Virus record (IMG/VR): IMGVR_UViG_3300021964_000018
Span: 64,001 to 128,000 of that record
Reading direction: 5' to 3' (one strand)
Length of the DNA: 64,000 bases
DNA from: a virus
Made by a program: the position numbers and the translations under genes. Positions 14,993 to 64,000 of this stretch are shown in pieces. Below the pieces are notes generated by a model. The model saw only the letters and a program-made list of their open reading frames with translations, did not search any database and was not told the origin of the DNA. Every line of letters begins with the position of its first letter. The first letter of the stretch is position 1.

Positions 14993-15904
14993 ATGAAATT
15001 AAATAGGCATAGTTTAAGAATGTTAATAGAAAGTGTACTTCAAGAAGAAGTAGATGTTTCAAAATTCAAAAAAGGTGAATCCACAATAGTAGCGACAAAA
15101 GGTGCAGCTGCTGATAATAAAGCAGCTTTTGAAGTTTCTGATGTTGACACTATAAAGAAAAAACTAGGTATAAAAATATCAGGAAAATATTATGTATGGA
15201 AAGGAAGTCAAGCAGAAGCAGGTTATAAATTAGGTTCTGTTAGATATTCTTCAGGCGACCCTTATACTTACGAAGAATTATCAAATGGGTTTTACAGAGT
15301 AATGTCCGGACCAGATAGTAACGAAAAAAGAGATAGTGGAAAAAGAATAGGTACGTCTCCAATTGGTGCTAAGTTTAAACCTTCTTCTCCTCCAGACGTT
15401 GTTGTTGATCCTACAAATGTTCTTTCGAAGTTACGCGAAACTCCTGATGGAGATAAAAGATCAGGCAATTTCGATAAAGCTGTGAACATATTGGTGGCGT
15501 GTGCATCTGACAAAAAACAACTAGGTGACGTTATAAGTGAATTAGAAAGTCTAGCAAGTAGACCAATTAGAGGAAAAGATCTTCTCGCTCATCCTGCACA
15601 TTATGTTGCAAGATTGATGATGGGAGGTGTACAACAAGGAGGCGAAGTTTCAGGAACAGGCGCAGCTGCAAGTAATTCCAAAATTATCAATAAATATTTG
15701 TCATTACTGCAGAAGAAGCACGGTATGGGACGTGGTAACGTCGATATAAAATTTGACATGCGGATTAGCCAAGATCGCGCAGATAAATCTAATTTTGGAG
15801 ATTCAGTTAAGTCTGGTGCGAAAACTGGTGGAGGTCAAGCTGAAAAAATGGATGAATCTTTATCACGCGGATCTTTACTAAGAAGACGTTATAGAAGATA
15901 CTAG
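14993..15904 (+). CDS. Hypothetical protein with MKLNR leader
   Basis: AAGGAG SD; starts MKLNRHSLRMLIES. Confidence 0.6.
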   Translation: MKLNRHSLRMLIESVLQEEVDVSKFKKGESTIVATKGAAADNKAAFEVSDVDTIKKKLGIKISGKYYVWKGSQAEAGYKLGSVRYSSGDPYTYEELSNGFYRVMSGPDSNEKRDSGKRIGTSPIGAKFKPSSPPDVVVDPTNVLSKLRETPDGDKRSGNFDKAVNILVACASDKKQLGDVISELESLASRPIRGKDLLAHPAHYVARLMMGGVQQGGEVSGTGAAASNSKIINKYLSLLQKKHGMGRGNVDIKFDMRISQDRADKSNFGDSVKSGAKTGGGQAEKMDESLSRGSLLRRRYRRY

Positions 15905-15925
15905 AATTAGCAAATTATTAATTTT

Positions 15926-15978
15926 AAAAGCGGCAATGCCGCTTTTTTTATGTAAAAAAAAAGCTAACTTAATAAAAT
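15926..15978 (+). terminator. Terminator followed by TGTAAA-N16-TAAAAT promoter
   Basis: AAAAGCGGCA-a-TGCCGCTTTTTTT; promoter boxes at 15951 and 15973. Confidence 0.7.
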
Positions 15979-15998
15979 AAAAATAAAAAGGAGCAAAT

Positions 15999-16442
15999 AT
16001 GAATAAATGTTATATTGCCAGCGGTTGGTTTTCACCTGAATGGCTAGAAGAATTAGAAACAATTAAATCTGTACTTGATAGTCTAAATTTAAAATACTTT
16101 TCACCAAAAGATGAAAATCTTTGCGAGCCGGATTCTGACGTTGGTTTTCAAGATCAAGTCTTTAACGGCAATATTAAAGGGATGGAAGAGTGTGATTGGA
16201 TGATCTGTAATACTCGTAATAAAGATATGGGTAGTATTTTTGAAGCAGGTTATTTTCATAAGTTAGGAAAACCAATTGTTTACTTTTGCGCCGGTCTTCC
16301 TCCTGGTGCGCAATTTAATCTTATGCTAGCTGCATCTGGTAAGACAGTTTGTACATCAATTAAACAACTCAAAGGCTATCTTATCGATTGCCAGGCAACA
16401 GGTGAAATTATTACTCGTCGTTATGAAGGAGATATTGAGTAA
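15999..16442 (+). CDS. Nucleoside 2-deoxyribosyltransferase / dNMP N-glycosidase family
   Basis: YIASGWF, FSP, D.GS.FEAG...GKPIV, N.ML motifs. Confidence 0.85.
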   Translation: MNKCYIASGWFSPEWLEELETIKSVLDSLNLKYFSPKDENLCEPDSDVGFQDQVFNGNIKGMEECDWMICNTRNKDMGSIFEAGYFHKLGKPIVYFCAGLPPGAQFNLMLAASGKTVCTSIKQLKGYLIDCQATGEIITRRYEGDIE

Positions 16443-18502: not shown

Positions 18503-20314
18503 GTGCAAATGATTATAAATGAAAAATTAATTAAAAAACTCATTAAGGAGTCTATTAACAAGTTAATAGTTGAAAAAGCTAAGTTTACAAAAGCAGAAAA
18601 TTTTTTAAAAGATACTGAAAATCATTATGAAATTTTTGAAAATATAAAATATTCCTATAATATTGTCATGTTAAAAGATTTTGAAAATGACCTAGAAGTA
18701 AAAGAAGAAGCAAAGAAAAATATAGAAAACGTCTTTGCTGCTTTTTTACACTCTAGCCCCAAAACAGAAAAAGGAAAGGTATGGTTTTTAGATAAGTCTA
18801 TTAACAGATACGTTACAGACTTAAGCAATATTCCAGAATTTGGCAGTAATCCTTTTTATGATAGTCCAATTTTACTTAAAAGAATAAAGGAAAAAAATAA
18901 TTTTTCCGACCAAGAAGCAAAGAAAAACCTACTAGATAGAATTAAACGTTTCACGAAAGATATATCTAGAGAATTAATAGAACTAGTAAAGAAATCAGTA
19001 ACACATGATTTGCAAAGAAAACTTAAGTCAAATTTTATGGAAAAAAATAAAGACATATTAGAAAGTTTAAACTTTGTTCATTATCCTTATGCGTTTAGAG
19101 AATATTCAGAAACAGACACAACAGGGATCGGCGCAGTCTTAGAAGTCCTAGGAAAGCCCTTGGAATTTTTAAAAGGAACTGTAGTTAATAGTCCTGACGA
19201 ATTAGCTGGGATTGGTTATCCTAAAGGGGAGGAATTAAGAGATTCAATTGGTATGGGTAGCGAGTTAGGAGGAAAAATCGCGTTTCCATATATTGGTTTT
19301 CTTATAACGGGAAAGATTACTTATTTTGATGAAAAAGATGCTCAATCATCAACTTATCGAAGTAGCTTTGTTGGCGGTCAAAGAGACAGCAGCGGTTTTG
19401 TAAGATACCCAAAAGACATTCAAGGTTCAATGTCCAACCAGATACCAGGCGCGTACAAGACAAAGGAGGAATTAGAAAATTATCTTTCTAATTTTGATAA
19501 AAGATTTGGCGCGTTAACAACAGCTGAAAGAAGCGAATCTGAGATAAAAACTGGTTTTAAAAAACATAATTATGGTGAAGCTTTTATTGACAATTGGACA
19601 GCAGTTGGTATGATTGCGCAATGGGATTTAATTGTTAAAAAGTTTAGAGAAAAGCTTTTAGCAACTATAACAGGTTTAGAATTAGATCCTCAAAAAGAAT
19701 TTAAGCAATACCTTTATAAAAATAAAGGTTATTCTCCTTTTAATGATATTCAATTGACACATAGCTTAAGAACAGCTAAAAAAAATCTAGATATCGTTGC
19801 CTTAGGCGAACCTAAAATAGAAGACTTGTCGGTAAATAAAAACCGATACAAGACGGCAAAAGATAATTTAAGTTTTGAATATGGTGGTGACTCAATTCCA
19901 TACTTATCGAAAAAACTAGGTATTCAAAAAGAAGCAGTACCTTCTTTTATTGAAGACTTTATAAAAAATATTGATCCTGTTTTAGAACAACTTAAAACAG
20001 GCGAAATATTATATAGTGAGTTAAATAATCCTAAAGTAGAAGAATTCATAGATAAATATTATGAAGGTGATATAGCTTCAGATTTGCAAAAACAACAACG
20101 CAAAATAAAAAACTTGATTAAAAAAACAGGCTCAGCATCAATAATTTCAACTTTAACAATCGGTCTAGAAAAGATTAATGATGATTTAAGCAAATTTGAA
20201 GATATTAAACTAAAATCATATGATAAAAATTTCAATGAATATGATGTTAAAATATTTACAAATAATATGAGGCAAATAATAGCAGAAGCAATTGCGCAAT
20301 TAAAAAAACGTTAA
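18503..20314 (+). CDS. Hypothetical protein with leader motif; paralog of 54859..56463
   Basis: Shares VHY..AF.E, GGQR..SGF.RY, E.FIDNW...G.IA.W and DKNFNE with 54859..56463. Confidence 0.65.
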   Translation: MQMIINEKLIKKLIKESINKLIVEKAKFTKAENFLKDTENHYEIFENIKYSYNIVMLKDFENDLEVKEEAKKNIENVFAAFLHSSPKTEKGKVWFLDKSINRYVTDLSNIPEFGSNPFYDSPILLKRIKEKNNFSDQEAKKNLLDRIKRFTKDISRELIELVKKSVTHDLQRKLKSNFMEKNKDILESLNFVHYPYAFREYSETDTTGIGAVLEVLGKPLEFLKGTVVNSPDELAGIGYPKGEELRDSIGMGSELGGKIAFPYIGFLITGKITYFDEKDAQSSTYRSSFVGGQRDSSGFVRYPKDIQGSMSNQIPGAYKTKEELENYLSNFDKRFGALTTAERSESEIKTGFKKHNYGEAFIDNWTAVGMIAQWDLIVKKFREKLLATITGLELDPQKEFKQYLYKNKGYSPFNDIQLTHSLRTAKKNLDIVALGEPKIEDLSVNKNRYKTAKDNLSFEYGGDSIPYLSKKLGIQKEAVPSFIEDFIKNIDPVLEQLKTGEILYSELNNPKVEEFIDKYYEGDIASDLQKQQRKIKNLIKKTGSASIISTLTIGLEKINDDLSKFEDIKLKSYDKNFNEYDVKIFTNNMRQIIAEAIAQLKKR

Positions 20315-30757: not shown

Positions 30758-31096
30758 ATGAAATTGAATAGAAGAGAATTAAGAAAATTAATTCACGAAT
30801 CGATTAATGAAGCAATGTCGCATGAAAGAAATTTTAGAAAAGCGCAACTTGCTCATGATAATATGCAACAGCCTGATTTTTATGAAGGTGATCCATCAAG
30901 TTTTTATGCCTCGGATGAAGAAATATTTGATTTCGCTGTTGAAAATTTAATTGATTTACTAATTGATCGTGCAGTTGATGAAGGTATTTTAACTGATGAA
31001 CAAGTTGAAAACATGTCCGATGAAGAATTAATTCCAATATTAAGACAGAATTTTAAAAGTGATCTTTATAAAGATGAATATGATCAGTATAATTAA
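30758..31096 (+). CDS. Hypothetical protein with MKLNR leader
   Basis: MKLNRRELRKLIHES. Confidence 0.6.
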   Translation: MKLNRRELRKLIHESINEAMSHERNFRKAQLAHDNMQQPDFYEGDPSSFYASDEEIFDFAVENLIDLLIDRAVDEGILTDEQVENMSDEELIPILRQNFKSDLYKDEYDQYN

Positions 31097-31124: not shown

Positions 31125-31502
31125 ATGAAAATTACAAGAAAACAATTAAGAAGCTTAATCATGGAAGCAGCTGCTGACGTCGAACAAGGTGTGCGAGACT
31201 ATTTGTCTAGACCAGGGCGAGGAGATCAAGCACATTATAATCCATACCGGGATCCCAATACTGGCCGAGCAAGAGGATTCGGGACAGCAGCAGATTATGA
31301 TTTAACTGGCGAAGAAATAAGAGATCATGCTTTTGGAATGGATTCAGATATGTACGGTGAAGAAGATATTGAACGTGATCAATTTGATTCCGAAGTTCAG
31401 GCAGCATTAGATAAGCTTGTTGATGAAGGAATCTTAGAATTAACTTATGATGGTTATATCATGCTCGACCCGAAGCCTTTAAACAATAAAGGAATTTCTT
31501 AA
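31125..31502 (+). CDS. Hypothetical protein with MKITR leader
   Basis: AGGAG SD; MKITRKQLRSLIME. Confidence 0.6.
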   Translation: MKITRKQLRSLIMEAAADVEQGVRDYLSRPGRGDQAHYNPYRDPNTGRARGFGTAADYDLTGEEIRDHAFGMDSDMYGEEDIERDQFDSEVQAALDKLVDEGILELTYDGYIMLDPKPLNNKGIS

Positions 31503-32329: not shown

Positions 32330-35272
32330 ATGAAAATACAAATTAACAAACATGTTTTAGAAGCTTTTAAAAAAAGACTACAAGAAAATAAATCGTCTCG
32401 AGGGGATATGGATTTTAATAGGACAACTGGTTTTTATGGAAATCACGGTTCTGTTAAATCTTTTACAGCGGGAGAAGATGACAGTGAAGAATTGCCTTTA
32501 GAGCCTAGCGCACACATGGCAACTCAATTATCATCCGAAGAACCGCCTGTAGATGATCCTGATTATGTTCCTGCTACAAATAAAGAGTTAGCATTAGCTT
32601 TGAGTAGAATTGCAAGGGAAGTTCCATTTGATCAAATTGAAAAATATTATAGAAAATCTCATAATACGTTAGATGATGTTTTAGATGCGCATGATGCCAA
32701 TCTATTTGAGGCAATTGATTATGAGAAAATTCATCCAATGCACCATAAGGCAATTAAAGATTTAATTAATCAGTATGTTAAAGGTAATTATTCTCCAGAA
32801 GATGCAGCTAAAATTATCAAAAACAATAGAAATGTTTCAAGATATCCAGGCGTAACACTCGATGACATTGTCGATGAATTAAATACAATAGCTAATGAAC
32901 TCGATCCACAAGAAAAAGACACAGCGCCTCTTGAGCCCTCTGATCCTTTTGTTAATCCTCCTGCTGAATTAAAAGACTTAAGCCCGGCTAAAGAAAAAAA
33001 GAAAATTGCAAAGGGTGTTGTAATTGACTATGACAAAGAAAACGCAAAAGTTAAAAAATCAAAAGCTAAGAAACGCCATAGAAAGTTAAAAGACATCGAG
33101 CCGCCCTCAGAAGAAGCAATGGATAAACGTGCTGAAGATGAAATGTTAGATATGCTAGCATCTGCATATTCAGAATTTACTGAGATGGATGAATATGCAG
33201 CAACATGGGACTGGAGCAATTATGAAAACGATGCTCCCTACTTGAAGGTCTTGTTTGATATTATTAAAGTATTGCATCAATTATCTTATAGGGTATTGCA
33301 AGCAAATTATATTAATAAGTATGGTGGTTATGTTTATGACCCGGACGCTGATGTGGGAGGAAACAAAAAAGGCGGTTTTGTTTTATTGCAACAAGGTCCT
33401 ACTTCGAGGCCTGAAGCGCAAGCAATGATAAGAAGAATATATGCAGATTTTGGATTAACATATGAAAATATGATGAGGCAGCAAAATATACTCAAAATGA
33501 GTATTGAAGATTTGTCCGCTGTAATTGAACGTGCTATGATTGGAATATTTCAAAGAGTACCACAATTATATGCTCAATATTTAAAAGCAACGCCTGTTCA
33601 CATGAAAAACGTTGGAATTGAAGGAGATCCTCAAGATGTCGCAAATGAAAACATTGGTTTTTTTGCAACAGTCTTGGCACATAAGTACAAAGGTGAATCT
33701 GAAATTTTAGATAGAGATCTGGTTAATGTTGCAATTGCAGGAATATTCAAAAGATGTTTGTTAGATTTGCCCACAGAGTTAGGAATTCAGACTTCTGTTA
33801 ATCTATCCATTGACACTTTAACTAAAAAGAAAAAACAAAAAACAGATAAAACGTTTGGTTTTAATTTAGCAGGTGCAACTCGAAGATTTGAAAAGTTAAG
33901 AAAAGATCCTAAAATTGCAAAGGTTATAAAAAAATTAATGCCTAAATTAATTTTAGGCAAAATTGAAGAAACAAAAACAGCAAAAGTCAGCAAAAAAGGC
34001 GGCAAATATAATTTTGAAGATAAGTCAACAGGATTAGGTTATGAATTAAGTGTAAAAGAACTTAAAAACAAAATTCAAATATATGTTGATGAAAGATTAA
34101 AAGGAAAGCAACCAACTTTTGATGAAGAAGAAGCAGAAAGAGAAGTAGATCTAGATCCGGAATATGATGCAGAAGCTGAAGAAAAAGAAATAAAAGGCAA
34201 ACTTTCAAAAGATGATTATGAAGTCAGAAAAGCTGTGCAGGAAATGGAAAAAATGATAGCGTCAGGTGATTGGATGCATATAGCACCACTTTTTGGATTT
34301 TCTGGAGCACCAGGTGTAAGACAATGGTATTTAAGATATCCGGAAAGAAAATTCATGATTATGACAGCTGCAAGATCTGACAATGCACCGGCCGGTGCTA
34401 AACGTTATTTAGATGTATTTAGAGAAATGAGAGAAAACTTAGGTAATAGTTTAATAACTTTAAACCAAAATACTCCTGGTGTATTAGACCTCATGATTGA
34501 TGAAATCGCCAACAAGGGCAGCTTAACAACATCAGATCAAGCAATGATTGAACTTTTAGAAGAAATGAGAGGAAACATTGAAGAATTATTAGTATTATAT
34601 GAAGACTATGATTCGTATGAAGAATTAGAAGAACAAAACCCAGAAGAACTTAAACGGCTATCAAATACACCTGGAGGATCACTTTTAAGATTTGGTATTG
34701 GAGCAGTCTTTGATAAAATCATCAAAGACATGGATACAGAATGGCATTCTGAAATGAAAGCTTATCTTGAAACTAAAAATGGTTTAAAAGAAAAAGATGC
34801 ACGTGATTTAGCATATTATTTTACCGGTCTTAAAAATAAGCCTAGTAAAGGAGACTTTTCCGAAGACAAAGATAAATTATCAAAAGCTGCTCAGGCCTTT
34901 GTTGACGTCGGAATGGAAGCTGAGGAGTTTTTTGAGGCATTAAGATATTCACAAGGATGGTTCTTTTCTACATTAGACAGGGAGCTTAGAAAAGGTGTAG
35001 AAGGAGACAATTATTATAATATGGTAAGAGATTTAACTAGTCAACCACTTTACAAAAAAGATAAAAAAGGTGTTATAAAACTTGATAAAAAAGTGTATAA
35101 CATATTTAAAAAGATGATTGAAGGCAAAAACGGTGCAATATCTGCTTATTTAGACAATTTAGCAATTGAAGAGTTTCAACAGGCAACTCAAAAAAAGATT
35201 GAAAAAATAAAGTCAGAAAAGCCTGAAATATTTATGGAAAATTTAAAAAATATTATTAGAAGGTTGATTTAG
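32330..35272 (+). CDS. Large hypothetical protein (possible head-associated)
   Basis: About 980 aa; LQE and FME motifs near the termini. Confidence 0.6.
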   Translation: MKIQINKHVLEAFKKRLQENKSSRGDMDFNRTTGFYGNHGSVKSFTAGEDDSEELPLEPSAHMATQLSSEEPPVDDPDYVPATNKELALALSRIAREVPFDQIEKYYRKSHNTLDDVLDAHDANLFEAIDYEKIHPMHHKAIKDLINQYVKGNYSPEDAAKIIKNNRNVSRYPGVTLDDIVDELNTIANELDPQEKDTAPLEPSDPFVNPPAELKDLSPAKEKKKIAKGVVIDYDKENAKVKKSKAKKRHRKLKDIEPPSEEAMDKRAEDEMLDMLASAYSEFTEMDEYAATWDWSNYENDAPYLKVLFDIIKVLHQLSYRVLQANYINKYGGYVYDPDADVGGNKKGGFVLLQQGPTSRPEAQAMIRRIYADFGLTYENMMRQQNILKMSIEDLSAVIERAMIGIFQRVPQLYAQYLKATPVHMKNVGIEGDPQDVANENIGFFATVLAHKYKGESEILDRDLVNVAIAGIFKRCLLDLPTELGIQTSVNLSIDTLTKKKKQKTDKTFGFNLAGATRRFEKLRKDPKIAKVIKKLMPKLILGKIEETKTAKVSKKGGKYNFEDKSTGLGYELSVKELKNKIQIYVDERLKGKQPTFDEEEAEREVDLDPEYDAEAEEKEIKGKLSKDDYEVRKAVQEMEKMIASGDWMHIAPLFGFSGAPGVRQWYLRYPERKFMIMTAARSDNAPAGAKRYLDVFREMRENLGNSLITLNQNTPGVLDLMIDEIANKGSLTTSDQAMIELLEEMRGNIEELLVLYEDYDSYEELEEQNPEELKRLSNTPGGSLLRFGIGAVFDKIIKDMDTEWHSEMKAYLETKNGLKEKDARDLAYYFTGLKNKPSKGDFSEDKDKLSKAAQAFVDVGMEAEEFFEALRYSQGWFFSTLDRELRKGVEGDNYYNMVRDLTSQPLYKKDKKGVIKLDKKVYNIFKKMIEGKNGAISAYLDNLAIEEFQQATQKKIEKIKSEKPEIFMENLKNIIRRLI

Positions 35273-36816: not shown

Positions 36817-37941
36817 ATGAAAATCAAAAGAAGCGACTTAGAAAAATTAATCCAAACTAATCTTATGAATGAAATTGTGTCATTATCTACTGGTGGTACA
36901 AATTATGAAACTGTAGATTATGAAAAGTGTGATATTAAAATACCACAAATTTTTAAAGATGTTTTTTTAAATACATTTTATGACGGTATAACGCCAAGAG
37001 AAGTTCGTTCTGCAATGTCCCAACATTTTGAAGAAAGCAATCCTAGATCAAATAAGGAAAAAGCAGCAAGAATAGCTGCTGTATTTAATGATGATGTTAT
37101 TAATAATATCACAAGTTTATTAACATCTTTTGCAAACATAGCAGGTGTTCCCGCTGTTGTTTGTAATTTTTTACAACTTGCAATAAATGAATTTGAAGAT
37201 CTTTTTAAGACATATGTTGATTTAGACAAAGATGAAGATAATAAGCTAGGTGATAATGTTTTACCTTTTGCTATTAAAAATTTAAAAGATGCATTGACAA
37301 TTGCAATGAGTAGGATTGAAACAGACTCGAATGGTATTAACACCGATATAATATTTATAGATCCTGCCGTTCCAATGCAAAACAACCCAGAATATAATTC
37401 TATATTACTTTTAATCTGCGGAGGTGAATTATTTGAAACACTTCCTCCAAAAGCAGGGGCCATGAAGCTTCAGGATGACGATAGGGAGTTTTTTGCTAAG
37501 CTAAAACAAATTGACAATACATTTATGGATTTTCAAGATGAAATGAATAGGCTTTATTCTAGATTAGATAAAAACTCTACATATATACGCATCGCCTCAG
37601 ATATGACGTCCATTATAAGCGAAAACTTAATTTCAAATAATTTATCTTCGGAACAGTCTAGTGTCGAAAGTGCTATCCAAAATGCATTGACAGATACTAA
37701 GCTTATTGAATCTTTAGAAAAAAATGATGCCGAAGCTTCAGAAGAAAAGGCGGTGGTTAATAAGAAAAAATATGTTAAAAGTTGTATTCAATTATTTGAA
37801 TATATATATTCAATGTGTTATTATCATTTAATAAATGTAATACCTAGAAGGTCAGGAACAAACGATATTCAAATATATTATGAAAATAATCCAAACTTTT
37901 ATACACTTCTTCGACAATTAGCACCAAAATATTTAAGGTAA
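36817..37941 (+). CDS. Hypothetical protein with MKIKR leader
   Basis: MKIKRSDLEKLIQ...MNE. Confidence 0.6.
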   Translation: MKIKRSDLEKLIQTNLMNEIVSLSTGGTNYETVDYEKCDIKIPQIFKDVFLNTFYDGITPREVRSAMSQHFEESNPRSNKEKAARIAAVFNDDVINNITSLLTSFANIAGVPAVVCNFLQLAINEFEDLFKTYVDLDKDEDNKLGDNVLPFAIKNLKDALTIAMSRIETDSNGINTDIIFIDPAVPMQNNPEYNSILLLICGGELFETLPPKAGAMKLQDDDREFFAKLKQIDNTFMDFQDEMNRLYSRLDKNSTYIRIASDMTSIISENLISNNLSSEQSSVESAIQNALTDTKLIESLEKNDAEASEEKAVVNKKKYVKSCIQLFEYIYSMCYYHLINVIPRRSGTNDIQIYYENNPNFYTLLRQLAPKYLR

Positions 37942-42684: not shown

Positions 42685-42709
42685 CTAAAAATTAAATTTG
42701 TAAATTTTT

Positions 42710-42748: not shown

Positions 42749-42775
42749 AATATTGTAAAAACCAAAGGAGAAAAA

Positions 42776-53756: not shown

Positions 53757-54191
53757 ATGACAAGGTTTGCATTAACTCACGTACCCGCATTGTTAGGAAA
53801 CGGTGCAATTGACAGGCTTTTTGAGGAATTTTTTCAAAACCCGGAGCCCTATGTCAAACAAACAACAAACGGATATCCACTAACAGATATCTACAAAGAA
53901 GAAGACGGCAGTCAAGTGATCGAAATGGCACTGGCTGGATTTTCTAAAGAAGACATCCTTATTAATACTGAGGCGAATAAAATTACTATCAGCGCTGACG
54001 GTTCTAAATTAAAGGGTCAACTAGCAGAAAATCGACGTCGAATTGCAAAGCGAGCATTTAAGAAATCATTTGTTGACTACCACAATACACTTGATTTTGG
54101 AAACTCAAATGCAACATTTGAAAACGGTTTGTTAAGAATTCAAATTCCTTTGCGGGATGAAGTTAAACCACGTCAAATTACTATTAAGTAA
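53757..54191 (+). CDS. Small heat-shock protein Hsp20 (IbpA-like)
   Basis: YP..DI, IEMALAGFSKEDI, IA.RAF..SF, A.FENGLL.I.I, P..I.I. Confidence 0.9.
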   Translation: MTRFALTHVPALLGNGAIDRLFEEFFQNPEPYVKQTTNGYPLTDIYKEEDGSQVIEMALAGFSKEDILINTEANKITISADGSKLKGQLAENRRRIAKRAFKKSFVDYHNTLDFGNSNATFENGLLRIQIPLRDEVKPRQITIK

Positions 54192-54269
54192 ATAATTTTA
54201 TATAAATCTTTAATATCTCTAACTTTAACAAATAGTTATTGTTAGAGATATTTTTTAATTGGAGAAAAA

Positions 54270-54779
54270 ATGAAACTTAATAGAAAAAACTTAAGAAAAT
54301 TAATTAACGAAGTTCTCACTGAATCTAAAGTTAATAGAAACCCTATTTACGCTAGAAACCCTGCATTTCTTTATCAGAACATTGCAAAGCCTGGACCTGG
54401 TAACGTGGAACTATATCAAAATATGGCCAAACCATCACAGTTTAAAGTAGACGGTCCTGATTTAGAAAGTGCATTAAGAGCTATGAAAAAAGAAAACAAT
54501 GTAAAGAATTTAGAAGGGCGCTACGAAGTTATTCTTCAACACTTAGTAGATTCTCGTTATTATACACCAGCTAATAAATCTTTCTTAATGGATGAATTTA
54601 GATTAATATTAAGAGATATGGAAAATTATATGACACACGAATTAGACGCTAATACCTTAGCACGAATTACCAGCGCAGGAAAAGATGATGATGATCCTTT
54701 GAGCCCAAGAAAAATTATTTATGACTTTTTCAAGTTTGGTAAGGGAAACTTAGAACATGATGGATTTGCAGGATTTTAA
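54270..54779 (+). CDS. Hypothetical protein with MKLNR leader
   Basis: MKLNRKNLRKLINEVLTE; LYQNxAKP duplication. Confidence 0.6.
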   Translation: MKLNRKNLRKLINEVLTESKVNRNPIYARNPAFLYQNIAKPGPGNVELYQNMAKPSQFKVDGPDLESALRAMKKENNVKNLEGRYEVILQHLVDSRYYTPANKSFLMDEFRLILRDMENYMTHELDANTLARITSAGKDDDDPLSPRKIIYDFFKFGKGNLEHDGFAGF

Positions 54780-54811: not shown

Positions 54812-54853
54812 TTATAAACCTCTGTTTGTAGCAAATAGTTATAAACGGAGGTT
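54812..54853 (+). repeat. 33-bp direct repeat / RBS-sequestering hairpin, copy A
   Basis: TTATAAACCTCTGTTTGTAGCAAATAGTTATAA (54812-54844) is identical to 56481-56513. Confidence 0.85.
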
Positions 54854-54858
54854 GTTTT

Positions 54859-56463
54859 ATGTTTATAAATGAAAATAGAATTAATGAAATTATACGACAT
54901 GTAATTTTAGAAAACATGGCACAGATGGGCCGAGCTTTTTTTGATAGTAAAGAAAGGAAAGCACAAGTTGAAAAAGAGCATCAAAGAAAAAGTAAAATTG
55001 CATATAAAAATCTAATACAAAACATGCATGCATTTATTAAAAACGAAGATTTGAATTCTATTATTTCATTCATTGTAAATAAGTCAGACACATATCTATT
55101 AGGTCCAGCTTATAATTATTACTTTAAAGGAAAGATTAATTATGTGCCATCTGGTACATCAGGTTATGCAGGATCAGACGCACTTAAAAAAGAATTTTTT
55201 GATTATATGTCTGAAAACGGGAAGGAAAAGTTATCAAAATTTTTAAATAGCTTGATCAAAAAAATAGGTCCCGGTTTAGAAAATGTCAAGCCAGGTTCCG
55301 GAACTAGTTCTGCAGATGAACAATTTTTAAGAGTGTTGGAGGATTACAAAAGACAGTTTTATAGTGCAATTGAATCTAACAAAAAAGATTTGGAAAAAAT
55401 AATTTCGCTTAATGAAAAGTCTATTAACTACATAGAAAACTTTAAAAACAAATATGACAAGCAAGGTTTTGATTTTGATGCACCAGGTGATTTTGAAAAA
55501 AGAGCGACTAAAAAAGAGTTTGATAATGTTGAAAAGGCAGAAGAATATAAGAAATTAACATTTGAAAAGTTTGAAGAAAAAATAATTTCAATAACTAAAA
55601 ACGAATATATAAGTTATAATTTAATTGCAGTTTTACAACAGATTTTAAAAAAACACATAAGTGATTTAAAAATTTCAAAGTCTGATAATATTATTGCACA
55701 AGCAAGAGTTGATAAGCGAAACTATTCAGAAGTAATAAAAAACAACCCCGGTTGGTTTATTGTACATTATATTAATGCATTTACTGAGCAAGACTATCAG
55801 GACGTTTTTCCTGGCGTATTATCTTGGGTCAACTATTTTGGAGGTAAAAGATCAAAAGATGAATTTGCAGGTGTTGCTTATCACAAAGATAATAAATACT
55901 TAGGAGATAATATTGGAAGAGGGACAGGAACAAGAGACAAATTACCAAGAGTAGGCGCTATACTGCAGGGATATGTTACTGCTATTTATGATGGCGATGT
56001 TGGGTCAACTACTTTTTCTCAAAGTAACCCTTATGGCGGTCAAAGAGAAGAAAGCGGATTTACAAGATACGCAGGTGATATGGGTGATTATTCTAGTCAA
56101 AGTAAAAGATTAATTATCGATTTAGAAAAATATAAAGAAAGTGTACAGGGAAAGGATTTTCTTTACAATGAAGGTTTTATAGACAATTGGCAGCCAACAG
56201 GAATAATAGCTGATTGGGAAGAAATTAAAAAAGTTTATATTAATAATGCAAATTCATTTTATCCAGAGTTAAGCGGGAAAGAAAAACCAGAAATTGTTAA
56301 AGCGTTATCAAACATTCTTTTGAGGATACCGCTAGCTTGCCAAGAAAAAGGCATGAAAATATTTGATAAAAACTTTAATGAAATTAACGCAAAAGATTTT
56401 ATAAAAATACTTAAAGATATGATAGATAACATATCTAATGTTTTATCTAGTCCTGGAAAATAA
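54859..56463 (+). CDS. Hypothetical protein; paralog of 18503..20314
   Basis: Shared C-terminal motif blocks. Confidence 0.65.
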   Translation: MFINENRINEIIRHVILENMAQMGRAFFDSKERKAQVEKEHQRKSKIAYKNLIQNMHAFIKNEDLNSIISFIVNKSDTYLLGPAYNYYFKGKINYVPSGTSGYAGSDALKKEFFDYMSENGKEKLSKFLNSLIKKIGPGLENVKPGSGTSSADEQFLRVLEDYKRQFYSAIESNKKDLEKIISLNEKSINYIENFKNKYDKQGFDFDAPGDFEKRATKKEFDNVEKAEEYKKLTFEKFEEKIISITKNEYISYNLIAVLQQILKKHISDLKISKSDNIIAQARVDKRNYSEVIKNNPGWFIVHYINAFTEQDYQDVFPGVLSWVNYFGGKRSKDEFAGVAYHKDNKYLGDNIGRGTGTRDKLPRVGAILQGYVTAIYDGDVGSTTFSQSNPYGGQREESGFTRYAGDMGDYSSQSKRLIIDLEKYKESVQGKDFLYNEGFIDNWQPTGIIADWEEIKKVYINNANSFYPELSGKEKPEIVKALSNILLRIPLACQEKGMKIFDKNFNEINAKDFIKILKDMIDNISNVLSSPGK

Positions 56464-56480: not shown

Positions 56481-56521
56481 TTATAAACCTCTGTTTGTAG
56501 CAAATAGTTATAAGCAGAGGT
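56481..56521 (+). repeat. 33-bp direct repeat / RBS-sequestering hairpin, copy B
   Basis: Same 33-mer as copy A. Confidence 0.85.
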
Positions 56522-56527
56522 ATTTTT

Positions 56528-57562
56528 ATGCAAGCAAGAAAAGGTGAATGGTTTTCTTTATCATGGGATATTATAGGTACTCATGATGAAAAAGCATATA
56601 GTCATTTTTATAATGCTCCTAAATTTTTGTATGCAGAAGAAGACAGCAAACAAATTGAAGCTGAAGTCATTAATGAATTTTATCGATTACGGCTGGCCAG
56701 AATATTTATCACATCAGTTTTCGTAACTGATACAGAAGGAAATAAAGTCCCTACACATTATCGAATTGGTGAATTTATGCCAGGAGATAATAAATCTTAT
56801 GACAAATGGTTGGCAAGGTACCATAAGATTAATTTTGAAGTTACGGAATATGTTCGTGCTAAAGAAGCACTAAATCAAAAAAATGTATATCTTGAACATT
56901 CGGCTAAAATTATTCGTCATGATATGCATAGCGGAATTAATACTTACATTCCACGAGGATTTAAAAGTTTAATTCGTAGATTACCAGAAAACATAATTAA
57001 AGAAAACCGTTTAGAAACTGCGCTTAAGCTATTAAAAGAAGGTATTGATCACGCCCAGAGAGTTTATAGTGGAGTTTATGCATTCACAAACTTGGTAAAA
57101 GAAGATAGCGTTTTAGAACAAGAAATATGCGATTTGAGAGAAGTAATTAAAGATTATCTCAGAGGAACAGCATATTCAGACCAAGTTATTGTTGAAGAAT
57201 TAATTGAATTAGAGGTTAATAGTTCTTTATTTTGCACAGCAATCGACAACTTAATAAGAAACGGTTTAAAATATAATGACAGTCCAACCAAATTTGTTCG
57301 TATATATATGGAAGATGAAGAAACAATCTGTGTCCAAGATAATGGTAGGGGATTGTCCCGAAGAGACTTTTTATATTTTTGCAAACCTTATGTAAGAAAA
57401 AGAGGTCAAGCTGAGTCTGGCTCAGGTTTAGGGCTTAACATCGCAGCTGCTATATTTACAGAGCACGGTTTTTCAATTGACCCAGAAAAGTTAGAAAATG
57501 GCACAATTATGAGGATAAAATTAAATGCAGGTGATAAAAAGTATATTATTAGTGGACGATGA
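56528..57562 (+). CDS. Sensor histidine kinase (cytoplasmic)
   Basis: IRHDM H-box, NLIRNGLKYN N-box, DNGRG G1, GSGLGL G2. Confidence 0.9.
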   Translation: MQARKGEWFSLSWDIIGTHDEKAYSHFYNAPKFLYAEEDSKQIEAEVINEFYRLRLARIFITSVFVTDTEGNKVPTHYRIGEFMPGDNKSYDKWLARYHKINFEVTEYVRAKEALNQKNVYLEHSAKIIRHDMHSGINTYIPRGFKSLIRRLPENIIKENRLETALKLLKEGIDHAQRVYSGVYAFTNLVKEDSVLEQEICDLREVIKDYLRGTAYSDQVIVEELIELEVNSSLFCTAIDNLIRNGLKYNDSPTKFVRIYMEDEETICVQDNGRGLSRRDFLYFCKPYVRKRGQAESGSGLGLNIAAAIFTEHGFSIDPEKLENGTIMRIKLNAGDKKYIISGR

Positions 57563-57962
57563 AACTCTATTTCATCTTGTTTTTGATGACGCATGCAACA
57601 TCTTAGACATCTCTTTAAATCTTGAAACTGTATCTTCTTCAGACACAGCTGAAAATATGTTTAAAGGGTTTCAAACAAATCAAGATGATAAGCCTGAATG
57701 TGTTTTTGTTGACCTAAACATTATTGGGTCATCATTTGATGGGATAGAATTGGTTCGTAGAATTAATTATCAATACGGAAATGGTGTTGTAATAGGGATT
57801 ATTTCAAGTTCATCAGATCCTATTGAGATTGATAAGGCAAAAGGTGCAGGTGCGCAGTTTTGGATTGTAAAATCAGATGATATTGAGCCTCGCTTGGAAC
57901 AATTTAAAGCTGATTATCCTAATTATAAAAACAGGACAGGTGCTTTTAAGGTGTACAAATGA
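57525..57962 (+). CDS. Single-domain response regulator
   Basis: ILLVDD, VFVDLN, DG.E, ISSS, GA..WIVK. Confidence 0.9.
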   Translation: MQVIKSILLVDDETLFHLVFDDACNILDISLNLETVSSSDTAENMFKGFQTNQDDKPECVFVDLNIIGSSFDGIELVRRINYQYGNGVVIGIISSSSDPIEIDKAKGAGAQFWIVKSDDIEPRLEQFKADYPNYKNRTGAFKVYK

Positions 57963-58522: not shown

Positions 58523-58707
58523 AAAAGCATTTAAAAGAAATTAACATGTCTTATTTTCAGCATATGAAATGCGCATTAGGCTATGCTAAAGAAAGTGGAA
58601 AAGCAATGATATATTTTTTTATTCACGCTTTCTTACCTGATATTTGGGTTGTAAAAGGCTCAAAAAAACTTAAAGAAATAAATAAGTCAATTGAGGATAG
58701 AAAATGA
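58519..58707 (+). CDS. Small DUF6356-like protein
   Basis: HL.E..MSYF.H...A.......IHA..P. Confidence 0.55.
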   Translation: MKKHLKEINMSYFQHMKCALGYAKESGKAMIYFFIHAFLPDIWVVKGSKKLKEINKSIEDRK

Positions 58708-59141
58708 AATTAACAAGAAACGGATTAAGAAGATTGATTTTAAAAGAATTTAAAGATGTAGCAGGTGGTAGCAACTATCGAATTGGAGGTGGCGGCTTTG
58801 GTTTGCCACCTGACGAACCTGACGACGGTGAAGGACCAGGAAAACCATTGACACCTTGTGAAAATTTTGACTCTAAATCACATAAAAAATCTCTTGAAAT
58901 AGTTCAATCATTATTTCAACAAGCATATGAATTAAGAGGTGAGTCAGATATATTTTTAAATCAATCTGGTTTTTTTAGCGAAGATCAGTTATTTTCAATT
59001 GACAAAGACGCAGAAATTTATTTGGAGTCTGATTTGGCTACGGAATTGTGTAAGGCTGGAAATACTTTAGAAAAAAGAATGGAAATACTAATTAGACTGA
59101 CTGATCCTAAAGCTTTATTTAGTATGCTTAACGACTATTAA
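58704..59141 (+). CDS. Hypothetical protein with MKLTR leader
   Basis: MKLTRNGLRRLILKEF. Confidence 0.6.
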   Translation: MKLTRNGLRRLILKEFKDVAGGSNYRIGGGGFGLPPDEPDDGEGPGKPLTPCENFDSKSHKKSLEIVQSLFQQAYELRGESDIFLNQSGFFSEDQLFSIDKDAEIYLESDLATELCKAGNTLEKRMEILIRLTDPKALFSMLNDY

Positions 59142-59187
59142 AAGTTTTAATTTTTATAGATATAATTAAAAACAAACAGGAGTTTAT

Positions 59188-60162: not shown

Positions 60163-60642
60163 GTGAAGTTAACCAAGAAACATTTAAAGCGCCTGATTAA
60201 AGAAGCATATCAACAGCATGCTTTTATTGATGCATTACACGATAAGTTCTCAGTAGAAGATGTAACTCCTGCTGAAGAAGCACCATATCGAGGTTATTAT
60301 AAAATAACCAAACAGTTTAGAATATGCAAGGTTATTTTATTTTTTACGCAATATGATGACGGTCACATTTATATATCAGATCTTTCAACAGTAGATGTTT
60401 TTGGCAGACCTAACGAAAATTGCTTTAGAAAAGGATATGCGAAACATGTATTACAAGATTTTGTAAGTTTGGCCGATCAGTTTGATATTGACATGTCTTT
60501 AACTGCTGCATCACTGGACAAAGAAAGATTTCCAAATCCTGAACTGATTAAGTTTTATGAAAAGCACGGGTTCGGAGGTGGAAATCCAAATTCAGACTGG
60601 GTTGAAATGATAAGAGATAGAAAAAGTGAGAGATCTATATGA
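60163..60642 (+). CDS. GNAT acetyltransferase with MKLTK leader
   Basis: FRKGYA...L, LIKFYEKHGF. Confidence 0.7.
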   Translation: MKLTKKHLKRLIKEAYQQHAFIDALHDKFSVEDVTPAEEAPYRGYYKITKQFRICKVILFFTQYDDGHIYISDLSTVDVFGRPNENCFRKGYAKHVLQDFVSLADQFDIDMSLTAASLDKERFPNPELIKFYEKHGFGGGNPNSDWVEMIRDRKSERSI

Positions 60643-61532
60643 AACTAACCAGAACACATTTACAAAACTTACTTATTGAACAAGTCCTATTCTCTGAGGG
60701 ACTACGTTATCATATAGAGAACTCTATTCCTCTTTATGATTGTATATATAGGCCTGGCTCAAAAGGTTTCTTCAGCCTTATTTCTGAATCACGCAAGATG
60801 TACAATAGTGGCCTGTTGCGTGTGGATGAAGATGAATTAGATATGTTAAATTCTGACATGGGGAGATTTGCAAACTACGGAAACAGAGAGGTTGCATTAG
60901 ATTTTCCAATCAGTCAAGAAGCCGATGATATGATGATGTTAAATAGCCAAGGTTTTCATAAATCAGAAGAGATGATGACTCGAGTTTTTAATAATGAGTT
61001 TGGAAATGAAATTGAAGTTGAAGTTCGAGGCTCTCATTATAATGACTTTATGGACGGTGAAAAACCCTATGAAGGAGTTTTTATTAGAATAACCGGGCCA
61101 GATAGTGAATCAAGTCAAGTTATAACAAGAATGGAAGCAGAAACGCTATTAGAGCTTTTAAGCAACTATTTCAATGAAGAACCAGAAAGACTTGATGAAA
61201 AGAAAAGACGCAAAAGAAAGAAATCAAAAGCAAAGAAATCGGGAAGCTACTATAAAGGACGCAAAGTAAAATTAAATAAACCAAAGCGTAATTCAGGTTC
61301 AGGTGGTAAATTTGTTGTTTATGTTAGAAATCAAAAAACAGGAAATATAAAGCGGATTACATTTGGTGCCCGTGGTATGACAACCGGATTAAGAAATCCT
61401 GCGCGTCGTAAATCATTTGCTGCTCGTCATCGATGTGCACAGAAAAAAGATAAACTTGCACCAGGCTATTGGGCATGTCGAATAGGTCGATACCCAGCTG
61501 TTTCTGGCGCTCCTTATACAACATGGTGGTAG
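60639..61532 (+). CDS. Leader-bearing protein with basic, conserved phage C-terminal domain
   Basis: MKLTRTHLQNLLIE; KVKLNKP...KF.VYV...I.FG..G...P.RR.SF.ARH.C...K..PGYWAC. Confidence 0.6.
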   Translation: MKLTRTHLQNLLIEQVLFSEGLRYHIENSIPLYDCIYRPGSKGFFSLISESRKMYNSGLLRVDEDELDMLNSDMGRFANYGNREVALDFPISQEADDMMMLNSQGFHKSEEMMTRVFNNEFGNEIEVEVRGSHYNDFMDGEKPYEGVFIRITGPDSESSQVITRMEAETLLELLSNYFNEEPERLDEKKRRKRKKSKAKKSGSYYKGRKVKLNKPKRNSGSGGKFVVYVRNQKTGNIKRITFGARGMTTGLRNPARRKSFAARHRCAQKKDKLAPGYWACRIGRYPAVSGAPYTTWW

Positions 61533-61533: not shown

Positions 61534-61905
61534 ATGAAAATAACAAAAAAACAATTAAGAAAAATAATACTTTTAGAAATGCAAAATGACAACCTAAATG
61601 ATCATAGTCGTCATTACCCAATAATAGCTCAGTTTTTACTTAGCCCTGATCATGAAACGTTTAAGCATGGGATTCTCCTAGGAGAATCATTAGAGTTGCT
61701 CGTAATAAGTGATGACCACCCAGGATACTATCATGATAGATCGTCTAGACATGTATACGAGCTTAGGATATGGTCTTCAGATTTTGCCCAATATCTTCAG
61801 CAAAACCATCCAGACGGTCCACAGCAGTCTGGTACTCAATACATTAATTATAAATTTCGTCCTGATATTAATTATTATAGCATGACAGTAAATATAGACA
61901 CATAA
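61534..61905 (+). CDS. Hypothetical protein with MKITK leader
   Basis: MKITKKQLRKIILLE. Confidence 0.6.
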   Translation: MKITKKQLRKIILLEMQNDNLNDHSRHYPIIAQFLLSPDHETFKHGILLGESLELLVISDDHPGYYHDRSSRHVYELRIWSSDFAQYLQQNHPDGPQQSGTQYINYKFRPDINYYSMTVNIDT

Positions 61906-61917: not shown

Positions 61918-62418
61918 ATGAAATTAACAAGAAAAGCATTAAGAAAAATTATAAGTGAGTTTAGATTACCAGAAAAGATGTATACACCTAATATTACTTC
62001 TGGTGATGGGTTTCCTCCTCCAGTTGACAATCCTGGAAACGGTGATGGTCAAAATAAATGTCAAAACTTTGAAGAAGTTCATGACGCAATATCTTATTTG
62101 CATGGTGAATTAACAGAATATTTTATCAATATGCCTATTGCTGATTATGAACACCTTAACGTTTATGAATTTACAGATATACCTTTTGACATAGCAGCTA
62201 GAAATCACGGTATACAAGTTGCTAAAGAATTAATTGCTAAATGTGGTAGATATAATTCTAGTGTTATGGTATTAATGACAAATCCGAAAGTACTTTTAGG
62301 CGACGATCCAATACGTTCTTATAATCAAAACTTTCAAAACATGTCGAGGCAAGGAATTGAAAGAAATGAATTAAAACATACAATTTTAATACTTCGTCAA
62401 GCGATACGGATGGTATAA
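61918..62418 (+). CDS. Hypothetical protein with MKLTR leader
   Basis: MKLTRKALRKIISE; Gly/Pro linker plus C.NF shared with 58704..59141. Confidence 0.6.
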   Translation: MKLTRKALRKIISEFRLPEKMYTPNITSGDGFPPPVDNPGNGDGQNKCQNFEEVHDAISYLHGELTEYFINMPIADYEHLNVYEFTDIPFDIAARNHGIQVAKELIAKCGRYNSSVMVLMTNPKVLLGDDPIRSYNQNFQNMSRQGIERNELKHTILILRQAIRMV

Positions 62419-62419
62419 A

Positions 62420-63232
62420 ATGAAGTTAACAAGAAGACAACTTAGATATTTAATTAGCGAAGCGGTTTTTAAAGAATCAGCCGGTGCATCTCCACCTGTT
62501 GATTTCATGTATGATATGATTGATGTAGGATCACCAATGGTTAAGCAACTATTTAAATATGTTTTTCCTCACAAGAATAAATTAAGTTTTAAAATCGAAC
62601 AAGATGATTTCAATGTTAAAGTTTTTATGTATTATAACAATATACAAATAGGGTCGGTGAAATCTCGTCTTGCTAATCCAAGACACGGAAGACAAGATCC
62701 TAAATTCAACCCTAGAAAAGAAAAAATAAATTTATTTGAAATTAAATCAGCTTTTCTAAGTTTAGGAAAAGATGTTCCTGAATTATTTAAAGAAAAAGGT
62801 TTTGGTCCCATTTTGTATGAACTTTGTTTAGAAGTAGTTTCTGCGAAAGGTAAAGATTATTATTTAACTTGCGACAGATATTCACTTCAACCAGACGCAT
62901 ATAATGTCTGGGCTTTTTATTATCACAATAGAAGAAACGATGTAGAGCAAAAACAACTAGACAATTCTTTTCTTCCAAGTCAATATAGCATAACAGACAA
63001 TCCTAATTTAAGATATCCTGGTTTTACCTCAGAAGATTTTTATGATGCATTCACAGAAAAAACAATTTTCCCACAAGGAGCTGACGAGGACGAGGACGAA
63101 ACAATTGGAGATTATATGGAGTATGCAAAAAAGAAAGATCCGTTAATGAAAGCATATCGAAAAGATGACGCGCCGTTTTTGACTATGCTAAAACTATATG
63201 GTGTCAAAGTAGAAGAAATTAATTTAACATGA
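62420..63232 (+). CDS. GNAT-like protein with MKLTR leader
   Basis: KGFGPILYE..LE...LT.DR.S...A..VW. Confidence 0.55.
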   Translation: MKLTRRQLRYLISEAVFKESAGASPPVDFMYDMIDVGSPMVKQLFKYVFPHKNKLSFKIEQDDFNVKVFMYYNNIQIGSVKSRLANPRHGRQDPKFNPRKEKINLFEIKSAFLSLGKDVPELFKEKGFGPILYELCLEVVSAKGKDYYLTCDRYSLQPDAYNVWAFYYHNRRNDVEQKQLDNSFLPSQYSITDNPNLRYPGFTSEDFYDAFTEKTIFPQGADEDEDETIGDYMEYAKKKDPLMKAYRKDDAPFLTMLKLYGVKVEEINLT

Positions 63233-63489
63233 ACCCGTACAAAGAAATACAGCAAGGTGAAATAACAATTCGAACATTTAAAAAAGATGTGGAAGATAAT
63301 GAGTTAGTGTGGCATAGAGACAGAGAAGATCGAGAAGTTAAAGTAGTTAAAGGTAGTGGGTGGCAATTTCAAAGAGAGGATCACTTGCCTATTTTACTTA
63401 AAGAAGGCGATGTTATACAAATAAAAAAAGAAGAATGGCATCGAATAATTAAAGGAAGAACAGATTTGATTGTAGAGGTAAGAGAATGA
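63229..63489 (+). CDS. Small cupin-fold protein
   Basis: LVWHRD.EDR...V.G.G...L..GD.I.I....WHR. Confidence 0.65.
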   Translation: MNPYKEIQQGEITIRTFKKDVEDNELVWHRDREDREVKVVKGSGWQFQREDHLPILLKEGDVIQIKKEEWHRIIKGRTDLIVEVRE

Positions 63490-64000
63490 AAATTACAAAT
63501 AAAAAAATTAAAAAATTAATTAAAGAATCGATCGAAAATATTTTATTTGAAGAATACAAAGGAATAATCGGAGGGGAGCTTAAAAAAGATCCGGAAACAG
63601 GAAAGTGGATTAGCGACAGAGATGAAGATGAATCAGGTGAACCAATAGTTTTTGATTCAGATGAAAGAAATCAGTTGTCTGCAGCATTTAGTGATGAAGA
63701 ATTTGTATCAAAAATACCTGATGAAAGAACTAGAAAGGCTATCGGGCCCGTACCTAAAGCCCCCGCTGCTAAGCAGAAAAAAACAGGTGCCAGACTATTT
63801 AAAGGAAAAAAGTTTAAAGATGCAAGATGGATGTGGGGTGAAAAAGCATTCCCAGGATCCAACGTATATTTAATTCCAGTTTTAGGTGGATCAAGAGAAG
63901 CAGCAAAATTAATGTTCGGAACAGATCCAAGTAAAAGAATAGGAGCTGATTCAATTGAATTTAGTAGGGCTGATCTAGTATATTCTGATAGTGAAAATAA
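63486..64000 (+). CDS. Hypothetical protein with MKIT leader (3'-truncated)
   Basis: ATG 63486 reads MKITNKKIKKLIKESIENILFEE; missing from the ORF track because it runs off the window. Confidence 0.6.
   Translation, partial: MKITNKKIKKLIKESIENILFEEYKGIIGGELKKDPETGKWISDRDEDESGEPIVFDSDERNQLSAAFSDEEFVSKIPDERTRKAIGPVPKAPAAKQKKTGARLFKGKKFKDARWMWGEKAFPGSNVYLIPVLGGSREAAKLMFGTDPSKRIGADSIEFSRADLVYSDSEN

Follow-up and report, generated by a model that had tools for sequence, protein, structure and literature searches.

A short N-terminal leader on unrelated proteins of an uncultured T4-type jumbo phage as a candidate capsid-targeting propeptide

Leader genes in the window and in the whole record

The subject of this analysis is a short N-terminal leader shared by otherwise dissimilar proteins, which the original prediction had taken for a tag that loads effector proteins into a phage head. 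It was first noted in a 64,000-nucleotide stretch of viral DNA (hereafter the window), which corresponds to bases 64001-128000 of the 141,038-bp record IMGVR_UViG_3300021964_000018 from IMG/VR (CheckV completeness 54%, GC content ~33%). The source is an uncultured estuarine T4-type jumbo phage. Separate studies have yielded many metagenomes, of estuary, marine and seawater type, that contain near-identical DNA, with at least half of the sampled words present in 11 sequencing runs other than the source, and no near-identity match for the window was found among the 50,697 deposited phage genomes of INPHARED. According to the portal protein, the closest cultured phages are Microcystis phage Mel-JY01 (40%), the Flavobacterium 'immuto' phages (37.5%) and Rhodothermus phage RM378 (34%). 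Coordinates below refer to the window unless they are marked as genome positions.

All 15 leader starts that had been proposed translate as written. To score them we used a position-specific scoring matrix (PSSM) built from 13 clear leader copies, with leave-one-out scoring of the main sites. The 11 sites that match MK(L/I)(T/N)(R/K)xxL(R/K)x(L/I)IxE obtained 11.6-32.5 bits, compared with a mean of -13.9 bits (sd 7.0) for the N-termini of 135 other called genes, of which only one, a further leader gene at genome position 134198, scores high. The four proposed variants fared differently. Those at 18509 (14.1 bits) and 36817 (13.0 bits) are weak but real, and the one at 54859 is a decayed copy. 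The gene at 32330..35272 (plus strand) was rejected, since its N-terminus MKIQINKHVLEAF scores -15.4 bits and falls inside the null range. Altogether, 13 open reading frames (ORFs) of the window lie above the PSSM null, in addition to the one decayed copy.

The leader is a basic, amphipathic peptide of ~14-16 residues with a pI of ~11 and one conserved hydrophobic face. Copies in this genome have the consensus MKLTRKxLRKLIxE, those of related phages MKITKxQLKQIIKEE. When the complete record was scanned in six frames with a regular expression, 16 matches came out, all on the plus strand and all starting ORFs of at least 96 aa. In a six-frame PSSM scan of the same 141 kb, the plus strand holds the best 21 windows and 27 of the best 31, with nearly all of these plus-strand matches at residue 1-2 of ORFs at least 96 aa long. 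The whole record encodes ~24 leader genes, all on the plus strand and all with the leader at a true ORF start.

The first leader gene of the window (14993..15904, 303 aa, 21.3 bits) starts with MKLNRHSLRMLIE, has an AAGGAG sequence 8-13 nt upstream of its ATG, and carries cargo with a pI of 9.6. It is followed by the weak variant at 18509..20314 (601 aa), which starts with MIINEKLIKKLIKE, and by two genes with acidic cargo at 30758..31096 (112 aa, 25.7 bits, cargo pI 4.1) and 31125..31502 (125 aa, 27.1 bits, cargo pI 4.2). The second weak variant, at 36817..37941 (374 aa), starts with MKIKRSDLEKLIQT; its residue 14 is not Glu, and the first Glu behind a hydrophobic pair is residue 19. Next come a gene with a hairpin over its ribosome-binding site (RBS) at 54270..54779 (169 aa, 29.2 bits) and the decayed gene at 54859..56463 (534 aa), which starts with MFINENRINEIIRHVILE and scores -2.5 bits. 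We consider this leader decayed because orthologues of the protein (71-83% identity) open with canonical-like leaders (MKITEKYLKKIIRKSL, MKVTNLYLKKIIKESL and similar) and because the leader-bearing 18509 protein is its paralogue (BLASTP 31% identity, E 9e-16).

The remaining genes form an array at 58.7-64 kb. It begins at 58704..59141 (145 aa, 18.9 bits, leader end ILKE at residue 15) and includes a gene with a GTG start at 60163..60642 (159 aa, 25.7 bits), followed by genes at 60639..61532 (297 aa, 11.6 bits), 61534..61905 (123 aa, 22.6 bits, leader end ILLE at residue 15) and 61918..62418 (166 aa, 30.6 bits). The best-scoring leader belongs to the gene at 62420..63232 (270 aa, 32.5 bits), and the last gene, at 63486..64000 (410 aa, 15.5 bits), continues beyond the window to genome position 128718. 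Outside the window, leader genes were assigned on the plus strand at genome positions 3825, 21605, 24314, 24664, 25884, 27014, 28150, 28821 and 134198, of which the one at genome 28821-29483 (L009:8821-9483) is a 220-aa ORF in the head module.

Among the few relatively high matrix scores away from an N-terminus, two lower-scoring ones fall at C-termini: leader-like basic amphipathic helices end the ORFs at genome 133008-133232 (L012:6008-6232, ..KLSEARIRKLIKEAL..) and 139695-140975 (L012:12695-13975, ..ITETYLRRLIRKAL..). These might be C-terminal versions of the tag, or chance matches. T4 Alt and gp21 have been reported to carry C-terminal propeptides.

Two other roles for an N-terminal peptide were considered and rejected. 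The leader has no hydrophobic core and hence does not resemble a secretion signal. Import into a phage nucleus was discarded because head and genome are T4-type; we know of no such import signal.

Conservation at the peptide and the nucleotide level

The leader is conserved as a peptide over a wide range of base compositions. A set of 247 leaders from IMG/VR loci that span 26-55% GC has residues 1-5, 8, 11, 12 and 14-16 fixed, with free variation of synonymous codons. For instance, all six codons are used for Leu8, and Ile12 is encoded by ATC, ATT and ATA in 114, 103 and 20 leaders, respectively. A GC-rich version still encodes MKMTKNELKDLIKE. Column entropy rises from below 0.3 bits at the most conserved columns to ~3.5-3.9 bits beyond residue 16, where conservation halts abruptly. 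Similar retention was observed within single families. The leader is kept in each of the 15 other homologues of the 62420 protein that were aligned, out of 21 found and with identities as low as 33%; M1, R9 and I12 are invariant, and K2, L8, L11 and E14 reach 90% or more, compared with a mean column identity of 54%.

Within the genome the picture is mixed. Pairs of leaders that share an amino acid also share the codon in 65.7% of cases, compared with the 47% (sd 3.8%) expected both from genome-wide usage and from codons 2-16 of other genes. This excess points to an additional DNA-level component, consistent with spread by duplication or recombination. The earlier argument that non-identical DNA places the conservation at the peptide level thus holds across genomes and is qualified within this one.

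The codon excess, which exceeds even N-terminal codon usage, is one of three observations that would suit a feature selected at the nucleotide level with the peptide as its by-product, for example an A-rich unstructured translation-initiation region, a translational-repressor operator or a recombination handle. The others are the identical 30-nt leader of ipII and ipIII in the T4 record and the RBS-covering hairpins before two leader genes. Such a feature would, however, leave unexplained why the amino acids stay fixed and the synonymous codons free over 26-55% GC, and both the hydrophobic periodicity and the preference for Glu over Asp described below are properties of a protein. We therefore regard a purely nucleotide-level origin as very improbable, and the free codons argue that selection on the leader acts at the peptide level across genomes. 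A recombination role could exist beside a targeting role.

Functional content of the leader-bearing proteins

The proteins behind the leader, here called cargo, had been described as unrelated, and BLASTP among 24 cargo regions agrees, linking only the 18509/54859 pair. When searched against Pfam and PHROGs, the leader proteins of the window matched no family, except that the C-terminal part of the 60639-61532 protein resembles phrog_7595 (E 1.7e-13), a family of unknown function. Replication and metabolic enzymes had been said to lack the leader, and the leaderless proteins scanned are ordinary enzymes and regulators, namely DnaE, GroEL, Hsp20, a histidine kinase, a response regulator, an amidohydrolase, a deoxyribosyltransferase, an epimerase and a methyltransferase.

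Two of the cargo domains had been called GNATs, which is borne out in part. The protein of 60163-60642, whose leader is kept in 6 of 6 homologues, was modelled with AlphaFold (AF2, pLDDT 74.7) and probably has an acyl-CoA N-acyltransferase (GNAT) fold according to Foldseek and the Atlas. Its top Foldseek rows are nearly all GNATs (probability 0.8-0.99, E 1e-3 to 1e-2, TM 0.3-0.4), and its Atlas GNAT clusters score 0.92-0.93. For the protein of 62420-63232 (AF2 pLDDT 60) there are weak hints, with many GNAT rows at VIA Z values of at most 5.5 and Atlas GNAT hints of 0.92-0.95, so that its cargo may be GNAT-like. Foldseek matched nothing to this second model, and a profile of its family matched no PDB sequence. 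Pfam matched neither protein.

Outside the window, recognisable cargo includes a leader-bearing phage lysozyme with LysM and a leader protein that matches the endonuclease VII and HNH endonuclease PHROGs, for which Pfam HNH gave 18.9 bits, under its 21.4-bit cut-off. Among 20 large cargo proteins from IMG/VR, only DUF7178 exceeded its Pfam cut-off. The 257 leader proteins collected from this genome and the IMG/VR loci have lengths of 64-934 aa (median 121 aa) and fall into 223 BLAST clusters, 207 of them singletons.

This diversity also bears on the notion that all leader proteins belong to one homologous family whose C-terminal parts have diverged past recognition. The tandem arrays and the excess codon identity do suggest spread by duplication, and most cargo is unclassifiable. 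Against common descent of the whole proteins stand the range of cargo lengths, the distinct folds (GNAT, phage lysozyme plus LysM, HNH/endonuclease VII-like) and the sharp stop of conservation at residue 16, and we give a single family hardly any credence.

Some ORFs (P0022-P0052; L019:10337-11050; L041:10904-11521) consist of two or three in-frame modules of leader plus cargo. Their internal leaders each begin with Met, and in 6 of the 7 copies from IMG/VR loci they have a Shine-Dalgarno sequence of their own. Such ORFs may represent polyproteins with a cut at every leader, fusions of neighbouring genes, or genes nested in one another.

Head module, prohead protease and the form of the cleavage site

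Upstream of the window, the record encodes a head module of T4 type. It includes a large terminase, a gp20-type portal (PF07230 Portal_T4, E 7e-71), a gp21-family prohead protease (genome 14595-15194; PF03420 Peptidase_S77, E 3e-26) and a gp23-type capsid protein (PF07068 Gp23, E 6e-34). The protease shares 30% identity with T4 gp21 (E 2e-22) and is apparently intact, with GE.DHP and SSRG.GS motifs, which hold the His and Ser, in alignment. A scaffold-like protein is very acidic, with a net charge of -51 compared with a pI of ~11 for the leaders, and contains 25 (L/I)xE sites. On the same strand, the interval from the capsid gene to the neck and tail genes contains nine leader genes. Directly after the protease, the gene at genome 15191 (153 aa) has the leader-like start MSKITKNDLKGIVKECLIE; here and in five related genomes, this protease-adjacent gene encodes a leader-like peptide followed by KEC(L/V)xE. 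No BLASTP similarity of the 153-aa core protein to T4 gp67 or gp68 was found.

The end of the leader has the form of a site for this type of protease. Leaders end in L-I-x-E, I-I-x-E or L-L-x-E, and the sites in the T4 record are FIAE in IPII and IPIII, LLRE in gp24 (MAKINELLRE, residue 10), LLIE in gp21 (residue 9) and FLTE in gp23 (residue 65), all of which are hydrophobic-hydrophobic-x-Glu, with Glu as P1 and hydrophobic residues as P3 and P4. The maturation site of the clade's capsid protein has this form, too. Around residue 61, QLL(R/K/N)E is conserved in this phage and five relatives, with A, Q or T as the next residue; the position is near that at which T4 gp23 is cut, a protein from which gp21 removes a 65-residue propeptide (PMC9958956).

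A hydrophobic-hydrophobic-x-Glu motif ending at residue 10-17 was found in 19 of 24 leaders and in 7 of 132 other proteins, an enrichment that is circular in part, since the leader definition itself contains the motif. We therefore also considered 85 further IMG/VR leaders that were found by residues 2-12 only, after exclusion of those that fit the pattern used for ascertainment. Of the 85, 71 have Glu and 1 has Asp at residue 14, and the four-residue motif lies inside residues 9-18 in 74. The 71:1 ratio favours a Glu-specific protease, since a docking helix would now and then tolerate Asp.

Targeting to the prohead does not by itself make the cargo a delivered effector. The leader proteins might instead be parts of the assembly core, or filler for DNA packing, that are degraded or retained. 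T4 offers a precedent in gp67, gp68 and gp22, core proteins that gp21 degrades (PMC9958956); most of the cargo here is small (median 121 aa), acidic and devoid of a recognisable enzyme family, and a true core gene has a leader-like start. On the other hand, the extreme diversity of the cargo, with 207 singletons among 257 proteins, and the variable gene arrays fit accessory or arms-race genes better than assembly parts, and some cargo is enzymatic (the GNAT fold, the lysozyme with LysM, and the HNH/endonuclease VII-like protein by PHROGs). We regard an assembly or filler role of the cargo, with no delivery to the host, as quite unlikely.

Distribution of the leader among phages

The leader is widespread in uncultured phages. 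A degenerate DNA pattern located it on at least 119 IMG/VR contigs, many of them with 3-10 tandem leader genes. One 242-kb contig has 18 strict matches, all forward, with none for a reversed control pattern, and a complete 190.5-kb genome has 17 matrix hits on one strand, 11 of them in a single array that spans the record ends. The leader profile scan proposed earlier for related genomes was carried out with a profile of 79 leaders; of 1.84 billion cluster representatives, 9,413 matched at E <= 1e-3. We examined the best 150 of these 9,413, and all were multi-module ORFs.

All 10 of the large IMG/VR contigs with leaders that were examined encode Peptidase_S77, as do 3 of 5 further leader records, the two without it being 62% and 27% complete. 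Altogether, S77 occurs in 13 of 15 large records with the leader, among them all four with a completeness of at least 96%; these counts come from leader-bearing records only, and leaderless large contigs supply no base rate for them. As judged from these records, the tag is confined to phages that encode an S77 protease.

Other searches gave few matches. A tblastn search of a typical IMG/VR leader protein against cultured phages gave no match, and blastn of a 51-nt leader stretch gave chance-level matches only, the best of them to a 484-kb phage record of metagenomic origin. Prokaryote genomes amounting to 596 Gb contain only 99 leader stretches, mostly single and chance-like; the multi-copy ones lie on contigs of marine metagenome-assembled genomes (MAGs), which we take to be phage contigs binned with the MAGs. 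Our literature searches found no paper on this leader; those for the peptide gave papers on other subjects, and combined-term searches returned only work on T4 and SPN3US.

Comparison with known systems of protein loading

The capsid-targeting sequence (CTS) of T4 is the textbook case of such a tag, with proteins loaded into the head and injected ahead of gene expression. It is the tag of IPII and IPIII and, like the propeptides of IPI and Alt, is removed by gp21 (Mullaney & Black 1996, reviewed in PMC9026906, PMC9958956, PMC3012670), a protease that strips N-terminal peptides from the internal proteins (IPs), Alt, gp23 and gp24 (PMC9958956). The first 10 residues of IPIII suffice for head targeting, in which residues 4 and 7 function; residues 8 and 10 function in processing, which is blocked by Asp at position 10 (PMC9026906). 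The leader resembles the CTS in three respects. Each is a short N-terminal peptide found on fast-evolving proteins that are otherwise unrelated; each belongs to a genome that encodes a T4-type portal, a gp21-family protease and a gp23-type capsid protein; and each ends in hydrophobic-hydrophobic-x-Glu with Glu rather than Asp, for which the evidence is experimental in T4 and the 71:1 count in this analysis. The scale is different, with ~24 genes per 141-kb fragment here compared with two T4 genes that have the exact CTS. Moreover, the leader is found on thousands of protein clusters from uncultured marine and estuarine phages, and its cargo is mostly acidic.

A second point of comparison is provided by the giant phages phiKZ, 201phi2-1 and SPN3US, whose large heads are likewise loaded with many proteins and whose ejection and inner-body proteins have long N-terminal propeptides (PMC5694885, PMC7411985). 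In SPN3US, gp53 and gp54 are diverged paralogues with identical N-termini that have been noted as CTS-like (PMC5694885, PMC7411985). The propeptides of these phages are removed after Glu by a T4-related prohead protease, as is predicted for the leader from its sequence. They are, however, at least 100 residues long, share no single short tag, and are cut at A/S-x-E rather than (L/I)(L/I)-x-E. Finally, these heads are made without T4-type core genes, while the phage studied here has a clear T4-type head module.

Outside phages, the cargo-loading peptides of encapsulins are also short and portable and dock diverse cargo inside a shell of HK97 fold. They differ from the leader as proposed here in that they are usually C-terminal, bind the shell protein, are not cut off by a maturation protease and have no role in delivery to another cell; the likeness is only one of analogy.

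Evidence for and against capsid targeting

We propose, with a probability of roughly 0.6, that the leader is a portable capsid-targeting propeptide of a T4-type head, similar in function to the T4 CTS but different in sequence and charge and present on far more genes. The reading draws on the T4-type head with its gp21-family protease, the matching form of the site, the 71:1 ratio of Glu to Asp, the leader-like gene next to the protease, the nine leader genes in the structural module and the co-occurrence with S77. What can be read off the genomes is an N-terminal tag, conserved as a peptide on unrelated cargo, in a phage with a T4-type head and an apparently intact protease, the tag ending in the site form of that protease family. 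Several independent tests of this kind back the targeting and cleavage parts of the original prediction. From them we infer docking to the core, cleavage and presence in the virion; the injection of effectors, which the prediction had also put forward, is pure inference.

A number of results weigh against this reading. The first concern the comparison with T4. The leader has no sequence similarity to MKTYQEFIAE of the T4 CTS, is 14-16 rather than 10 residues long, and is strongly basic where the T4 peptide is acidic; a T4 CTS pattern that finds ipII and ipIII in T4 gives no match in this genome even with 3 mismatches. Conversely, the leader pattern with one mismatch allowed gives none in the cultured phages T4, P-SSM2, Syn9, HTVC008M or RM378, and the strict pattern none in the records of Flavobacterium phage immuto and Microcystis phage Mel-JY01. 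The mature cargo is mostly acidic (pI 4-6), whereas the T4 IPs have been described as basic (PMC9026906). Other results concern promoters and gene order. Copies of the T4 late-promoter motif TATAAATA number 5 on the plus and 6 on the minus strand; the motif is not enriched and does not precede leader genes, and many leader genes of the window sit amid genes for nucleotide metabolism and regulation rather than structural ones. In the GNAT model of 60163-60642, the leader is part of a continuous helix (residues 5-28) that runs into the domain without a linker. To these are added the codon excess within the genome, the circular part of the motif enrichment and the missing base rate for S77, all given above.

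Several of these points would be accounted for if the leader were a docking or oligomerisation helix for a target other than the prohead, such as a host hub protein, the phage GroEL, another phage complex or, in the style of an arginine-rich motif, nucleic acid, and were not cut by the head protease. A basic amphipathic helix with one conserved hydrophobic face suits such a role, as do a leader that passes into the first helix of its domain, the many leader genes among non-structural ones and the presence of GroEL in the genome. Left unexplained would be the near absence of Asp at residue 14, the agreement of the leader end with the capsid maturation site, the leader-like core gene by the protease, and the restriction of the leader to S77-encoding phages. 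We consider docking elsewhere the main alternative, though a rather unlikely one.

Under the capsid-targeting reading, the leader would act in the following way. As a basic amphipathic helix of ~14-16 residues, it would dock the attached protein onto the scaffolding core during prohead assembly. This core would include the very acidic scaffold-like protein and the conserved core protein whose N-terminus resembles the leader. The gp21-family serine protease would then cut behind the Glu of the terminal hydrophobic-hydrophobic-x-Glu, and the mature cargo, freed inside the head, would travel with the DNA.

Regulatory elements and neighbouring genes

Three copies of a ~50-nt element lie at 54209-54258, 54812-54861 and 56481-56530, directly upstream of the starts at 54270, 54859 and 56528; two of the three genes they precede bear leaders. 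The elements fold as hairpins of 15-17 bp (dG -19 to -22 kcal/mol, z -4.5 to -7). The copies before 54859 and 56528 are near-identical, and the Shine-Dalgarno bases fall within the 3' arm. The element may be a translational control element that hides the RBS. TATAAT-like boxes, often TGnTATAAT, occur in many intergenic gaps (for instance at 9390-9451, 42685-42775 and 59142-59187) and precede structural and non-structural genes alike.

A gene for a histidine-kinase-like ATPase (HATPase_c) and a response-regulator receiver gene lie together at 56528-57962, behind the third hairpin. This candidate two-component pair of the phage is situated just upstream of the 58.7-64 kb leader array. Two genes for chaperones were also annotated in the window, a GroEL-type chaperonin at 40443-42062 (Cpn60, E 7e-70) and an Hsp20-family small heat-shock protein at 53757-54191.

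Implications for T4-type phages

The wider form of the proposal concerns a large clade of uncultured marine and estuarine T4-type phages, in which a single peptide 'zip code' would load thousands of unrelated protein families, GNAT-fold enzymes and a lysozyme among them, for co-injection with the DNA. We advance it tentatively, as a possibility that falls somewhat short of probable. The scale involved is considerable: a single partial genome has ~24 such genes and public data hold at least 9,400 such protein clusters, nearly all of them without a known family, while the T4 CTS covers a handful.

If the proposal is true, the leader would provide a sequence handle by which effector and counter-defence proteins delivered by virions can be picked out of metagenomes, together with a predicted mature N-terminus for every leader protein. 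It would also offer a second, independent tag for engineering foreign cargo into T4-type capsids. The virion-delivered proteins of uncultured phages could then be listed from sequence, and this set would likely be rich in counter-defence and host-takeover functions.

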